A stretch of DNA of 32,000 nucleotides from Comamonadaceae bacterium (GTDB lineage Bacteria > Pseudomonadota > Gammaproteobacteria > Burkholderiales > Burkholderiaceae_C), in contig CANGPN010000010.1 in the NCBI GenBank assembly GCA_947456305.1, positions 1 through 32,000 of the forward strand, read 5' to 3'. The translations under genes and the position numbers were made by a program. Of the stretch, positions 19,283 through 22,225 are shown piece after piece. Below the pieces are notes generated by a model. The model had not been told where the DNA came from. It saw nothing but the letters and a program-made list of their open reading frames with translations, and ran no database searches. Position 1 is the first letter of the stretch. The number at the start of each line of letters is the position of its first letter.

Positions 19283-20062
19283 ATGTCTACCTTAACCAGT
19301 CAACAAATCAACCTGACCCGTTCCGAGGAAAAAGTTTCTCGCTTTACCCTCAGCTATGTCTGGTTTGCCGTCGCCATGATTGTGCTGACAGGCGTTTATG
19401 TCTCTTACCGTCTGTACCAACAGATGTACGGCATGACTGCCGGCTTGGACTCGACAGAACCTATTTTCCAGGACATCTGGATGCGCCTTTTTTATATACA
19501 ACTGCCGGTTTTGTTCGGCATTGTTGCGCTGATTCAGGTCTACCTGTTTTTCACCCGCGACCGAAACATAGATGCCATTACACCTGAAGTTGAACTCAAA
19601 CGTTATTTCTATCTCACCATGTGGCTGGTGGTTTACACCTTCACTTTTTACTGGATCGGCAGCTTCTTTGGCGAAGGCGACGGCAACTGGCACCAAACAG
19701 TGCTGCGTGACACACCCATCACACCCAGCCATGTGGTCTTGTTTTACGCATGTATTCCCATGTACCTGATGTTCGGTATCGGCAGTTTTGTCTATGCCAT
19801 GACCCGTATTCCTGCATTTTGTAAAGGCATTTCATTGATGCACGTGTTCGCTGTAGTGGGCCCATTTTTGATTTTGCCCAATCTGGGCTACAACGAATGG
19901 GGCCATGCCTACTGGTTGACTGAAGAAATCTTTTCTCATCCCTTGCATTGGGGTTTTGTGGTGCTGGGCTGGAATGCCTTGTCACTCGCAGGCGTCTTGA
20001 TGCAAATCATTTCGCGCTTTCGTGAACTGATGCCCATCGTTTTCAAAAACGAAATAGCCTGA
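19283..20062 (+). CDS. copper membrane monooxygenase subunit C (PmoC/AmoC family)
   Basis: Blocks [21 protein letters not shown] and [27 protein letters not shown] align by eye with PmoC. The D133/H137/H150 and N204/H208/H222 metal-ligand spacings are conserved. Confidence 0.9.
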   Translation: [259 protein letters not shown]

Positions 20063-20088
20063 CCAGCCAGCCTACTTAGGAATTCACC

Positions 20089-20940
20089 ATGAACACTGAA
20101 ACTCTGCAACACCCTGGCGGTGCGGCGGCAGGACAAACGCACGCCCAAGATACTGTGATCAGCGTGTCAGGACTGTCCCCCAAAGCACTTCACTATTCCC
20201 GCGTCTTCGAACTTTTTGTGGTGGCCGCTATCATCATGTTGTTTGCCGGCGCTATCCACTTGCACGTCTTGCTGTTAGCCGGCGACTGGGACATGTTTCT
20301 TGACTGGAAAGACCGTCAGTACTGGCCCCTCTTATCACCGGTAGTCATGATCATGTTCCCGGCTGCCTTGCAGGGCATTTTCTGGACTTACTTTCGCTTA
20401 CCGATAGGCGCGACCGTAGGTGCTACTTGTTTGATGTTGGCCGTGTCTATTTCCAGACCCGCATCCTTCATGTGGTGGACAGACTACCCCCTCAATCTGG
20501 TACTGCCGGCGCAAATGATTGCGGGTGCCATCGTGCTGGATGTGTTTCTGCTGGTGTTTCGTAATGCGTTGTTCACCGCCATATTCGGCGGTTTTGCATT
20601 TGCGTTTTTGTTCTACCCGTCCAACTACACCATTTTTGCGCCGTTTTATGTGCCAGTCAGCCATCAAGGCATGATGGCCTCCATGGCCGACTTGATAGGT
20701 TATGTGTATCCGCGCTCTGCCACGCCGGAGTATATACGCATCATCGAACGCGGCACATTGCGCACCTTTGGCGACTCCGCCAGTTGGGTGTCGGCCCTTT
20801 TTGGCGGATTTATTTGCATCTTCATGCACTATGCCTGGTGGTACTTGGGCATTGCCATGTCATCCATGAAATTCTTGCCCAACAACGCCAAAGTCATGGC
20901 ATTGATGGGCACCAAAGCAGACGCAAAAGCAGGTGCTTGA
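20089..20940 (+). CDS. copper membrane monooxygenase subunit A (PmoA/AmoA family)
   Basis: WDMFLDWKDRQYWP, LFYPSNYTIFAP, TPEYIRIIERGTLRTFG and WWYLG are hallmark AmoA/PmoA blocks, though the protein is divergent overall. Confidence 0.9.
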   Translation: MNTETLQHPGGAAAGQTHAQDTVISVSGLSPKALHYSRVFELFVVAAIIMLFAGAIHLHVLLLAGDWDMFLDWKDRQYWPLLSPVVMIMFPAALQGIFWTYFRLPIGATVGATCLMLAVSISRPASFMWWTDYPLNLVLPAQMIAGAIVLDVFLLVFRNALFTAIFGGFAFAFLFYPSNYTIFAPFYVPVSHQGMMASMADLIGYVYPRSATPEYIRIIERGTLRTFGDSASWVSALFGGFICIFMHYAWWYLGIAMSSMKFLPNNAKVMALMGTKADAKAGA

Positions 20941-20965
20941 GCGCCTGCCTTCAAGGGGAAAAATC

Positions 20966-22225
20966 GTGCTGTTAATTCAAAAAACCATGAAGATGTGGGC
21001 GCTTTGCCTGGGGCTGGTGCTGGCGGCCGGTGCTGCCACTGAGACTGCCTGGGCGCATGGAGAGCGTTCTCAAGAACCTTATCTGCGTACCCGCACTGTT
21101 CAGTACTATGACGTGCATTACGACAAGCAAACAGTCAAAGTGAACGAGGAATTCACTTTGGTCGGTAAGTTCCGTTTGATGGAAGACTGGCCGGATGCAG
21201 TCAGCTTGCCTGAGACTGTTTTCTTGTCCGCCTATGCACCCGGTCCCATGATCACACGCGTGGAAAGCTACCTCAATGGCATGCCTGCGCGCCAGTCATT
21301 TTCCAAGCTTGAATTGGGCCGTGACTACGAATTCAAGTTAGTTATGAAGGGTCGCATACCGGGTAGACACCACATCCATCCATTACTGTCTGTCAAAGGT
21401 TCTGGCCCCCTGGTAGGGCCCGGGCAATGGATAGAAGTAACCGGCAGCAAAGCAGATTACCTGATGCCTGTGACGACTATGAATGGCGTGAAGATCGACA
21501 ACATCGAGTTCTATGGAATCTCACGTGCGCTGAAATGGTATGGCGTGTGGATTGCTTTGGCTGCCTTTTGGTTGCTGTTCTGGTTGGTTCGGCCGCTGCT
21601 GTTACCCCGTTGGATGGCTTTACAAAAAGGCCGCGAAGATGTGTTGATCTCCAACCGTGATATCACGGTGGGCGTGATCTTGGGCGTGGTAGTGGTTGCA
21701 ATCTCATTTGGCGGCTATTTCTACGCCAAGCAGGAGTACCCTTATGTTGTTCCCTTGCAAGCCGGTACCAACAAAATTGATCCTCTGCCCAAACCTGCTC
21801 ACTCGGTAGAAGTCTCGGTATTGAAAGCCAGCTATGACGTACCCGGACGCGCCATGCACGTCACTACGCGCATGACCAACCATGGTTCTGAGCCGGTGTC
21901 TGTGCTTGAGTTCGCCACAGCCAATCTGCGTTTTGTGAATCAGCAAGCCCCCGGCGCCGACAAAGCCGTCAGTGCCGACTATCCGCGTGATTTGGTTGCT
22001 CGCGGCGGACTGGGACTTTCAGATCAAAAACCTTTGATGCCGGGTGAAACCCGTGATGTCAAGTTCGAAGCCAGCGACGCACTTTGGGAAGTAGAGCGAC
22101 TGGTCAGTTTCTTGACTGACGTGGACTCCAAATTCGGTGGTTTGCTGTTCTTTGTTGACAAATCCGGCAACCGGTTGATGACTGAAATCAGCGGTCCTAT
22201 TCTTCCGACCTTCACGGCTTTGTGA
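20966..22225 (+). CDS. copper membrane monooxygenase subunit B (PmoB/AmoB family)
   Basis: The signal peptide ends AWA|HGERSQEPY, giving an N-terminal His like PmoB His33. A GRHHIHP H-x-H motif is at 21371-21379. Two TM helices lie mid-protein. The start is GTG 20966 (AAGGGGA RBS) or ATG 20987. Confidence 0.88.
   Translation: MLLIQKTMKMWALCLGLVLAAGAATETAWAHGERSQEPYLRTRTVQYYDVHYDKQTVKVNEEFTLVGKFRLMEDWPDAVSLPETVFLSAYAPGPMITRVESYLNGMPARQSFSKLELGRDYEFKLVMKGRIPGRHHIHPLLSVKGSGPLVGPGQWIEVTGSKADYLMPVTTMNGVKIDNIEFYGISRALKWYGVWIALAAFWLLFWLVRPLLLPRWMALQKGREDVLISNRDITVGVILGVVVVAISFGGYFYAKQEYPYVVPLQAGTNKIDPLPKPAHSVEVSVLKASYDVPGRAMHVTTRMTNHGSEPVSVLEFATANLRFVNQQAPGADKAVSADYPRDLVARGGLGLSDQKPLMPGETRDVKFEASDALWEVERLVSFLTDVDSKFGGLLFFVDKSGNRLMTEISGPILPTFTAL

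Follow-up and report, generated by a model that had tools for sequence, protein, structure and literature searches.

The locus at 19283-25909 of the window (the whole 32,000-nt stretch analysed here) is confirmed as a genuine copper membrane monooxygenase (CuMMO) operon, intact and under strong conservation, carried by a Comamonadaceae-type heterotroph of fresh water. The encoded enzyme is probably functional and neither a canonical ammonia monooxygenase (AMO) nor a canonical particulate methane monooxygenase (pMMO); it is a member of a deep xmoCABD radiation associated with Burkholderiales, and most likely hydroxylates a small, hydrophobic organic compound that feeds heterotrophic carbon metabolism. 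The region is organised as follows:

19090..19282, + strand: upstream intergenic region of 193 bp with no ORF, presumed to hold the promoter and leader
19283..20062, + strand: xmoC, CuMMO subunit C, 259 aa (Pfam AmoC, 4e-89)
20089..20940, + strand: xmoA, CuMMO subunit A, 283 aa (Pfam AMO, 4e-80)
20966..22225, + strand: xmoB, CuMMO subunit B, 419 aa from GTG 20966 (Pfam Monooxygenase_B, 4e-137)
22227..22802, + strand: xmoD, PmoD/AmoD homologue, 191 aa (phmmer to PmoD 6cpd_A, 1e-17)
22805..23167, + strand: copC, periplasmic copper-binding protein, 120 aa (Pfam CopC, 1.3e-17)
23170..25056, + strand: copD fusion, 628 aa (Pfam CopD, 2e-14, and Cytochrome_CBB3, 1.5e-10)
25049..25909, + strand: membrane-anchored periplasmic serine esterase, 286 aa, with an 8-nt overlap with the copD stop

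The three co-directional ORFs in C-A-B order that the first-pass annotation had described are borne out by ORF calls and Pfam, and the joint encoding of A, B and C subunits that align over their full length to solved AMO/pMMO chains points to membership of the CuMMO/XMO superfamily. The unit had been closed at 22225; its CAB genes stand, but the module continues to 25909 and comprises seven genes, all intact (xmoCAB, xmoD, copC, CopD::cytochrome c and the esterase). The complete set is seen again in relatives as distant as 48% XmoA identity, and one lineage at 49% keeps CAB, D and the esterase without copCD. The xmoB gene had also been correctly recognised, but its likeliest start is GTG 20966, which is preceded by an AAGGGGA ribosome-binding site and is also chosen by the gene caller in public assemblies, and not the alternative GTG 20933, which would yield 430 aa. 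The copC start at 22805 likewise agrees with the gene calls of public assemblies. An RBS-like AAGGAG lies 6 nt 5' of the xmoC ATG; within 19090..19282, a sigma-70 consensus scan and Rfam returned no match, and inspection by eye found no convincing sigma-54 -24/-12 element.

All the metal ligands named at first pass are retained. In XmoC, the CuC-type residues D133/H137/H150 (D-x3-H-x12-H; nt 19679, 19691 and 19730) and the CuD-type residues N204/H208/H222 (N-x3-H-x13-H; nt 19892, 19904 and 19946) were found where they had been predicted. The same is true in XmoB of the histidine following the signal peptide (...ETAWA|HGERS; nt 21056-21058), which aligns with residue 1 of the mature AmoB and PmoB chains, and of the H-I-H motif (nt 21371-21379), which aligns with 'HMH' of AMO and 'HVH' of pMMO; these ligands are H42, H147 and H149 in the numbering of the 430-aa ORF. 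In alignment, the ligands of both subunits match the ligand-bearing blocks of solved AMO/pMMO structures. The 22-residue CuD segment is invariant in orthologues that are 59-93% identical overall, and differs from AMO and pMMO references at five positions. The best PDB matches are AMO 9pxf_G (4e-72) for XmoC, with pMMO 4phz_K at 2.5e-70, AmoA (1e-67) for XmoA, with PmoA at 2e-64, and AmoB 9leg_B (5e-114) for XmoB; identity to the N. europaea chains is 46.6% for AmoC and 42.7% for AmoB. Against the NCBIfam models, XmoC reaches 345.8 bits with AmoC_BACT (cut-off 319), XmoB 522 bits with AmoB_BACT (cut-off 336) and XmoA 283.3 with AmoA_BACT, under its cut-off of 290; the two scores above cut-off count against an organic or alkane substrate.

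The accessory genes extend this core with copper-related and hydrolytic functions. XmoD consists of a signal peptide, a cupredoxin-like domain and a C-terminal transmembrane helix (segment 148-176), has no match in Pfam or NCBIfam, and is encoded 3' of xmoB in every relative examined. Its Cys32, Met41 and His42, which we take to be copper ligands, lie where XmoD aligns with the N-terminal block of 6cpd PmoD that bears its Cys/His residues. CopC scores 78 bits with the NCBIfam model copper_CopC, under the cut-off of 95. The CopD fusion, with about ten hydrophobic segments and one CxxCH motif, starts with the polytopic CopD membrane domain, followed by a mono-haem cytochrome c (CLACH, aa 378) and a C-terminal domain of about 175 aa with only a sub-threshold match to AhpC/TSA (thioredoxin fold; E=0.02); the CopD plus cytochrome c architecture is kept in relatives down to 48% XmoA identity. 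The esterase has 48 homologues in a 5.8-billion-protein database, none of them with a Pfam domain, and shows invariant Ser166 (GHSDGG), Asp220 and His271 together with eight invariant cysteines. Its AF2 model (pLDDT 91) is closest in fold to feruloyl and acetyl-xylan esterases and PHB depolymerases (E 3e-11 to 5e-9). Apart from L025 and the P0036 contig, all lineages of the radiation that were examined have an orthologue 3' of copD (or D), with identity falling to 29-36%. An esterase does not fit into a simple terminal alkane pathway, which counts against an alkane as substrate.

The operon is part of an extensive, uncultured radiation that is sister to AMO and pMMO and whose genes annotation pipelines mislabel as ammonia monooxygenase. 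XmoA is 41.6% identical to N. europaea AmoA (PDB 9cl6; trimmed alignment) and about 41-43% identical to M. capsulatus PmoA (41.2% in the trimmed alignment), while these two share about 50% (49.6%) with each other, the PmoA values being approximate. Together with the AmoA_BACT score, these values substantiate the strong divergence of subunit A noticed at first pass. In a neighbour-joining tree whose references were three solved AmoA of betaproteobacterial ammonia oxidisers (beta-AOB) and an approximate M. capsulatus PmoA sequence, XmoA falls in a separate radiation (bootstrap 100/100) that excludes them all; on these sequences it would lie outside the AOB/comammox AmoA clade and outside the gamma, alpha, Verrucomicrobia and NC10 pMMO clades. 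Members of this radiation are all metagenomic and come from lakes, rivers and drinking water, and the best 120 database matches (48-97% identity) are all nearer to the window XmoA than canonical AmoA is. XmoA copies 96-98% identical occur in lake and river MAGs. Compared with four lake MAGs, xmoCAB shows dN/dS of 0.01-0.06 with saturated dS (0.036-0.046 for xmoC; 0.013-0.034 for xmoA, with dS 0.8-1.5), with 0.013-0.2 as the overall range. Since dN/dS is low while synonymous sites are saturated, the high amino-acid identity reflects long-term constraint and not recent transfer.

The host is a Comamonadaceae-type heterotroph, as indicated by the names of MAGs with near-identical genes (Comamonadaceae or Burkholderiales), by the best named matches of AceE (Variovorax, Ramlibacter, Rhodoferax and Polaromonas, 74-81%) and by the heterotroph genes of the window. 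The early impression that nitrifier and methanotroph markers are missing held up: Pfam scans of the approximately 33 ORFs of the 32-kb window found no hao, multihaem cytochrome or methanol dehydrogenase. Neither hao nor cytochrome c554/cM552 occurs in the window or within ±10 kb of about 12 related loci, and C1-assimilation genes are found neither in the window nor in related neighbourhoods. The neighbourhoods of relatives hold regulators and carbon-catabolic genes. A divergent MimR_N/HTH_8 regulator adjoins the operon at L020, L021, L005 and L027, a LysR regulator at L025 and on the P0036 contig, and an aldehyde dehydrogenase with an AMP-binding ligase at L027; an orthologous acyl-CoA ligase, with or without thiolase, SDR and enoyl-CoA hydratase, lies near it at L020, L006 and L025. 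No regulator, dehydrogenase or CoA ligase adjoins the operon in this window, which counts against the organic or alkane reading, and the operon-linked ligases of relatives share only 30% identity with the AMP-binding gene found at 8826-10367. The sources of the matches are oxic lakes, rivers and drinking-water plants; such waters commonly contain ammonia and methane and only little C2-C4 alkane, which is a further point against an organic or alkane substrate.

Among the closest known systems, the xmoCABD clusters of Rhodoferax and Polaromonas resemble this one by description: a Comamonadaceae/Burkholderiales host that is not a nitrifier, the CAB-D order, a heterotroph context without nitrifier or methanotroph markers, and low identity to AMO and pMMO. 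They differ in coming from oil-sands tailings, while the present genes come from natural lakes. The work of Rochman et al. in 2020 is said to have tied these clusters to ethane and propane and not to methane or ammonia, their carriers reportedly having no capacity for ammonia catabolism and not assimilating methane. To our knowledge, the extension by copC, copD::cytochrome c and an esterase and the invariant CuD motif have not been described for them. A supplement listing also reports a Rhodoferax genome with two xmoA copies (PMC11135946). Since betaproteobacterial non-nitrifier CuMMOs have been described from Rochman et al. 2020 (ISME J 14:714) onwards and near-identical genes are present in public MAGs, the novelty of the locus is lower than was first implied.

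The amoCAB-amoE-amoD-copCD operon of beta-AOB (Nitrosomonas, Nitrosospira; 9cl6, 9pxf, 9leg) shares the same subunits with all metal ligands and the succession of CAB, a PmoD/AmoD-type gene and copC/copD, and provides the marginally best-scoring structures. The D-copC-copD order noted at first pass is genuine, and such beta-AOB-like synteny counts against an organic or alkane substrate. The resemblance is nevertheless partial: the window subunits are only 42-47% identical and form a separate radiation, CopD is fused to a cytochrome c and a further domain, the operon includes an esterase, five invariant positions around the CuD site are changed, and the host is a heterotroph with no hao seen in the window or the related loci. 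Besides, both amoE and amoD are present in the beta-AOB arrangement amoCABED (PMC13058606), while the locus has one D gene only, at 22227-22802, directly followed by copC; the two-D-paralogue layout of beta-AOB/comammox AMO was rejected on this ground. The pmoCAB(D) operons of Gamma- and Alphaproteobacteria (1yew, 7s4h, 4phz) share fold, ligands and CAB order, and XmoD is 36.5% identical to Methylocystis PmoD (6cpd), but subunit identity is limited to about 41% (A), 43% (B, Methylomagnum) and 47% (C) and no C1 metabolism genes surround the window operon. Actinobacterial hmoCAB/bmoCAB (Mycolicibacterium chubuense NBB4, Rhodococcus sp. ZPP) are also CuMMOs of heterotrophs and oxidise short-chain alkanes; they belong to another phylum, and membership was rejected as subunit B shows no more than 28-31% identity to the plasmid-borne enzymes of Rhodococcus, Mycobacterium and Mycolicibacterium. 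Finally, pXMO (pxmABC) of gammaproteobacterial methanotrophs is a divergent CuMMO of uncertain substrate as well; its A-B-C order (Tavormina 2011) differs from the C-A-B order of the window, and this membership was rejected too.

By analogy, the locus is best read as a putative monooxygenase of hydrocarbons or small organic molecules, like those connected with ethane and propane use in Rhodoferax/Polaromonas, and C2-C4 alkanes would be the only substrate candidates with experimental support, which comes from relatives. An organic substrate is supported by the neighbourhoods of relatives, with their regulators, aldehyde dehydrogenase, acyl-CoA ligase and beta-oxidation genes. These neighbourhoods, the separate radiation and the conserved ligands favour the original proposal of a hydrocarbon-type or uncharacterised CuMMO clade in a heterotroph; its 'alkane-type' label should not be taken to mean the actinobacterial HMO/BMO type. 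XmoCAB would assemble as a trimer in the membrane, XmoB contributing the CuB histidine brace and XmoC the CuC/CuD sites; in both, the ligands themselves are observed. Judging from their domains, CopC and CopD::cytochrome c may take up copper in the periplasm for loading, perhaps with its reduction, and XmoD could act like PmoD as a CuA protein in copper delivery or electron transfer. The alcohol product would be converted to the acid and then to acyl-CoA by genes located elsewhere in the genome, which are operon-adjacent in relatives and not here, and the co-conserved periplasmic esterase may hydrolyse an ester intermediate.

A genuine AMO, which would make these freshwater Comamonadaceae overlooked ammonia oxidisers with a heterotrophic or mixotrophic lifestyle, or give them co-metabolic ammonia oxidation at rates that matter ecologically, appears improbable to us. 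In its favour, CuMMOs studied so far also accept NH3, ammonia and not alkanes abounds in the habitat, beta-AOB AMO is the top PDB match for all three subunits by a small margin, the gene order CAB-D-copC-copD matches that of beta-AOB, and AmoC_BACT and AmoB_BACT are above cut-off. GenBank MAG relatives already carry the name 'bacterial ammonia monooxygenase'; however, NCBIfam also gives its AmoB name to the PmoB of the methanotroph Methylomagnum, so these models are not AMO-specific. A genuine AMO is also at odds with the AmoA_BACT score, the 41.6% identity and fully supported separation of XmoA, the five altered CuD positions, the missing hao and cytochrome c554/cM552 in the window and about 12 related loci, the carbon-catabolic genes and MimR/LysR regulators adjoining relatives' operons, and the lack of ammonia catabolism reported in the 2020 study. 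In known AOB, hao is unlinked to amo, and its absence near the operon therefore says little. An unclassified Burkholderiaceae carrying amo/pmo genes without hao has been found in an oil-sands lake, Base Mine Lake (PMC6824324), which speaks for the organic reading and against AMO; Mori et al. judged this carrier 'more likely' a methanotroph (PMC6824324). A pMMO of an unrecognised Burkholderiales methanotroph would fit this judgement, methane-rich lakes and the nearly equal similarity to pMMO and AMO, yet we regard it as highly improbable given the position of XmoA outside the pMMO clades (about 41% to M. capsulatus PmoA), the missing methanol dehydrogenase and C1-assimilation genes in the window and related neighbourhoods, and the lack of methane assimilation that Rochman et al. 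reported for carriers of related genes.

A non-alkane organic substrate (ethylene, isoprene, acetone or another ketone, a small ester or ether), with the esterase as a dedicated pathway enzyme, is a less probable alternative. The esterase is co-conserved with xmoCABD even in the copCD-less lineage, with L025 and the P0036 contig as exceptions, and has a CE1/PHB-depolymerase-like fold acting on small carboxyl esters; a role in membrane or copper-enzyme maturation would be just as plausible for it. In Mycobacterium, regulators of the MimR type respond to acetone or alcohols, and MimR_N regulators adjoin the operon at four loci. In Methylacidiphilum, acetone is a substrate of a CuMMO homologue (PMC8630023). 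Nor is the habitat rich in hydrocarbons. On the other hand, none of the neighbourhoods contains a Baeyer-Villiger monooxygenase or epoxide-handling genes, and for betaproteobacterial CuMMOs the experiments have dealt with ethane and propane only. As for a decaying or recently transferred relic without current function, the variable flanks of genomes with 96-98% identical XmoA and the integrase and transposases around the L025 operon could be read that way, but the intact ORFs, the purifying selection at saturated synonymous sites and the identical recovery of the contig in several metagenomes effectively refute it.

More widely, the seven-gene module and the invariant, altered CuD pocket might mark proteobacterial CuMMOs of a third functional kind, whose age would equal that of the AMO/pMMO split and which would occur widely in drinking water and in oxic lakes and rivers, a reading that we consider rather unlikely. 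Its substrate would be neither an alkane nor methane or ammonia as energy source, for instance a biogenic volatile or oxygenate requiring a periplasmic esterase, or else the module would perform cryptic ammonia oxidation in abundant freshwater heterotrophs. If the latter were true, this activity would be missed by amoA surveys.

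ORF calling over 17-26 kb of the window delineated seven tightly packed and co-directional genes, which make up the following module:

19283-20062, + strand: xmoC; Pfam AmoC (4e-89), above the NCBIfam AmoC equivalog cut-off
20089-20940, + strand: xmoA; Pfam AMO (4e-80), just under the NCBIfam AmoA cut-off (283.3 versus 290)
20966 (or 20933)-22225, + strand: xmoB; Pfam Monooxygenase_B (4e-137), above the NCBIfam AmoB equivalog cut-off
22227-22802, + strand: xmoD (191 aa); match to PDB 6cpd (1e-17, 36.5% identity)
22805-23167, + strand: copC; CopC
23170-25056, + strand: copD fusion (628 aa); CopD, mono-haem cytochrome c and a C-terminal domain
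25049-25909, + strand: esterase (286 aa), N-terminally anchored; recognised by its fold and catalytic residues

The first-pass annotation had read this locus as a copper membrane monooxygenase (CuMMO) operon, and the C, A and B ORFs were indeed found at the places it gave, with the Pfam domains AmoC, AMO and Monooxygenase_B. All the defining features tested are present, and the locus can be assigned, from its sequence, to the CuMMO superfamily. The likely start of xmoB is GTG 20966, since it is preceded by an AAGGGGA ribosome-binding site and is the start used by gene calls in public assemblies. XmoD carries Cys32, Met41 and His42 in the stretch that aligns with the N-terminal, Cys/His-containing block of PmoD, and has a transmembrane helix at its C terminus. 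No sigma-70 consensus was detected upstream of xmoC, nor any sigma-54 element convincing by eye in 19090-19282, and neither the Rfam nor the tRNA scan of the window returned a match.

The metal ligands announced from the sequence were recovered at the same nucleotides: D133/H137/H150 and N204/H208/H222 in XmoC, and the post-signal histidine (21056-21058) and H-I-H motif (21371-21379) in XmoB. In alignments with solved chains of ammonia monooxygenase (AMO) and particulate methane monooxygenase (pMMO), they fall on the blocks that carry the ligands. The CuD segment of XmoC (residues 204-225; 19892-19957) is invariant among orthologues that are 59-93% identical overall, and it differs at five positions from the AMO/pMMO reference NEWGH[A/T]FWFMEELF[S/V]APLHWGF. 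The five include a change of Phe to Tyr and one of Ala to His, the latter giving an extra histidine three residues ahead of the third ligand. This altered and invariant segment is a putative active-site signature specific to the clade.

At the protein level, XmoA shares 41.6% identity with Nitrosomonas europaea AmoA (PDB 9cl6) and 41.2% with Methylococcus capsulatus PmoA, the latter sequence having been entered by hand, not taken from a database record; the same PmoA sequence and N. europaea AmoA are 49.6% identical to each other. The N. europaea subunits are 42.7% identical to XmoB and 46.6% to XmoC, and XmoB is 43% identical to Methylomagnum PmoB. The best 120 protein-database matches to XmoA (48-97% identity) are all closer to the window protein than is canonical AmoA. 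In a neighbour-joining analysis, a limited test with few named references (three solved AMO chains taken from alignments and the hand-entered M. capsulatus PmoA, without comammox and Emo-type references), these matches form one radiation (bootstrap 100/100) that leaves out the three solved AmoA of betaproteobacterial ammonia oxidisers (beta-AOB), PmoA and the other 50%-cluster representatives; its sister relationship to beta-AOB AMO is unsupported (10/100). The radiation is large and very strongly constrained, and lies as far from AMO and pMMO as those two lie from one another.

Compared with known classes, the window operon departs from beta-AOB AMO in its clade, in its single D gene where AMO has two D paralogues, and in falling under the AmoA equivalog cut-off. 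It differs from pMMO by its clade, from pXMO by its gene order and from actinobacterial HMO/BMO by an identity of only 28-31% to their B subunits. By its host and type of operon, it fits the published description of betaproteobacterial xmoCABD. The MBAE14 'putative AMO' group (Mori 2019) was considered as the same lineage and rejected, as it belongs to a marine-type gammaproteobacterium with hao.

Conservation of the module in relatives was read from tblastn and neighbourhood look-ups; for the high-GC loci L005, L009 and L010, only tblastn was used because greedy ORF calling produced spurious reverse-strand ORFs. The order C-A-B-D-copC-copD::cytochrome c-esterase, including the CopD-cytochrome c architecture, is kept down to 48% XmoA identity (locus L026). 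Reduced versions are found in a 62% relative (L025), which keeps CABD-copC-copD::cytochrome c and lacks the esterase, in the 65% contig P0036, which has only CAB and D, and in a 49% lineage (L027), which has lost copCD and kept D and the esterase. Genes outside the module differ even among genomes with 96-98% identical XmoA. In L025, a phage-type integrase, a resolvase and several transposases (1-9000 and 18900-19700) flank the xmo module, which suggests that at least this copy lies on a mobile island.

In the copD product, the CopD part is joined to a mono-haem cytochrome c (CLACH motif at aa 378), itself followed by a domain of ~175 aa whose only match, sub-threshold, is to AhpC/TSA (thioredoxin fold); possible roles of the fusion are Cu(II) reduction for import or electron supply to XmoD. 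The esterase gene begins before copD ends, with an 8-nt overlap at the copD stop codon, and is translationally coupled to copD. Its product displays Ser166 (GHSDGG), Asp220, His271 and eight cysteines, all invariant, and its AlphaFold model (pLDDT 91) is closest, in a fold search, to feruloyl/acetyl-xylan esterases and PHB depolymerases (E 3e-11 to 5e-9). Only 48 homologues were retrieved among 5.8 billion proteins, none with a Pfam domain. The protein belongs to a narrow family of serine esterases that are membrane-anchored and rich in disulphides, with a CE1/PHB-depolymerase-like fold. Orthologues occur at loci L001, L003, L006-L009, L012, L013, L020-L024, L026 and L027, and the gene is co-conserved with xmoCABD over most of the radiation, the copCD-less lineage included; it is absent from P0036 as well as from L025.

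Selection on the operon was evaluated by comparing the window with four loci from lake metagenome-assembled genomes (MAGs; L012, L001, L002 and L003). XmoA is 97-98% identical in protein and 84-87% in DNA, the accessory genes are only 51-81% identical, and the flanks are wholly different among these genomes. With dS at about 0.8-3, synonymous sites have reached saturation; dN/dS amounts to 0.013-0.034 in xmoA, about 0.04 in xmoC, 0.03-0.06 in xmoB and 0.08-0.2 in the accessory genes (D, copC, copD and the esterase). It is thus very strong long-term purifying selection that has kept XmoA nearly identical. Recent horizontal transfer, considered in view of the differing flanks, was ruled out because synonymous sites are saturated, and the dN/dS analysis excludes that the operon is a relic.

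Identical contigs are present in ENA lake metagenomes (e.g. the 86-kb GROS21-1 scaffold). The closest genomic XmoA copies (96-98%) come from MAGs of lakes and one river, which bear the titles Comamonadaceae, Burkholderiales or Betaproteobacteria; copies at 75-81% come from Burkholderiaceae and Methylibium MAGs, and a 54% relative originates from a drinking-water-plant metagenome. Among named matches, the AceE fragment that closes the window is most similar to proteins of Variovorax, Ramlibacter, Rhodoferax and Polaromonas (74-81%). The rest of the window has the ordinary heterotroph content previously described for it, and neither hao nor a multihaem cytochrome or methanol dehydrogenase gene was found there. 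On the minus strand, 2327-4342 encodes a 425-aa GSDH/NHL beta-propeller (soluble PQQ-type sugar-dehydrogenase-like), then a small cytochrome c and a Rap1a-like protein; the beta-propeller is not a methanol dehydrogenase, and these genes may encode a periplasmic dehydrogenase together with a dedicated electron acceptor. A minus-strand cluster at 11191-15107 (circularly permuted ATP-grasp, Alpha-E, transglutaminase-like and proteasome-type subunit) is the conserved 'Anbu' peptide-ligase/proteasome-like operon of comparative genomics, unrelated to the xmo finding. A solitary 262-aa AAA_15/ABC-type ATPase (10367-11155) matches many ATPase models of defence systems (mad3 5e-22, AriA, PtuA, GajA), with no recognisable partner gene beside it. 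Directly 5' of xmoC, four co-directional genes (15562-19089), absent from the other xmo loci, encode products of 466 aa, 267 aa (N-terminal TM), 173 aa (DnaJ domain) and 259 aa (ending in a Cys-rich ribbon), for which no Pfam, NCBIfam or usable PADLOC family was found beyond the J domain. GC content is strongly heterogeneous, with 41% at 1-1000, 61-63% at 7-10 kb, where a 506-aa ORF without family is located (7322-8842), and 47-53% over the xmo module.

Regarding the substrate, about 12 related neighbourhoods contain no nitrifier or methanotroph markers. Beside the module lies a divergently transcribed MimR_N/HTH_8 regulator in L020, L021, L005 and L027, or a LysR regulator in L025 and P0036. 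An orthologous acyl-CoA ligase adjoins it in L020, L006 and L025 (mutually 64-82% identical), with thiolase, SDR and enoyl-CoA hydratase genes after it in two lineages; the L027 neighbours are an aldehyde dehydrogenase and an AMP-binding ligase, and a PCuAC-type copper chaperone is found next to the module in other relatives. Such neighbours are as would be expected for a small organic substrate oxidised to the acid and acyl-CoA. No such regulator, dehydrogenase or ligase genes adjoin the operon in the window. Polaromonas and Rhodoferax CuMMOs were reportedly tied, by Rochman et al. in 2020, to ethane and propane, not methane or ammonia. Awala et al. entered the enzymes of these genera as 'unknown function', a Burkholderiaceae amo/pmo carrier without hao was described by Mori et al. 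(PMC6824324), and the supplement of PMC11135946 includes a Rhodoferax genome with two xmoA genes.

From the neighbourhoods and the literature, we therefore favour a hydrocarbon or small-organic monooxygenase as the probable product of the xmo operon, C2-C4 alkanes being the only candidates with experimental support. The earlier proposal of a hydrocarbon-type or uncharacterised CuMMO clade is supported. Since the enzyme is widespread in oxic, hydrocarbon-poor fresh water and comes with a private periplasmic esterase, two other readings are kept: a non-alkane natural substrate, which we consider unlikely, and physiologically relevant ammonia oxidation, which is more improbable still.

This kind of operon, betaproteobacterial xmoCABD, has been on record since 2020, and public MAGs already contain near-identical genes, often under the wrong name AMO. 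To our knowledge, the seven-gene module with its CopD::cytochrome c fusion, the esterase family dedicated to it, the invariant altered CuD segment and the very low dN/dS of the operon are new. The NCBIfam 'equivalog' models AmoB_BACT and AmoC_BACT pass the window operon, a non-AOB enzyme, and MAG relatives (database matches P0010 and P0015) are deposited as 'bacterial ammonia monooxygenase'; therefore, freshwater nitrogen-cycle surveys can over-call ammonia oxidisers. In the same vein, a Methylomagnum pmoB (plasmid hit H1) is named 'AmoB' by PGAP, and the GROWdb river catalogue found dedicated phylogenies necessary to sort such homologues. Besides, the radiation bears on the evolution of CuMMO substrate specificity and on the origin of the beta-AOB amoCAB(ED)-copCD cluster, and its single PmoD, CopC, CopD::cytochrome c and private esterase offer testable entry points on the copper loading and electron supply of CuMMOs.
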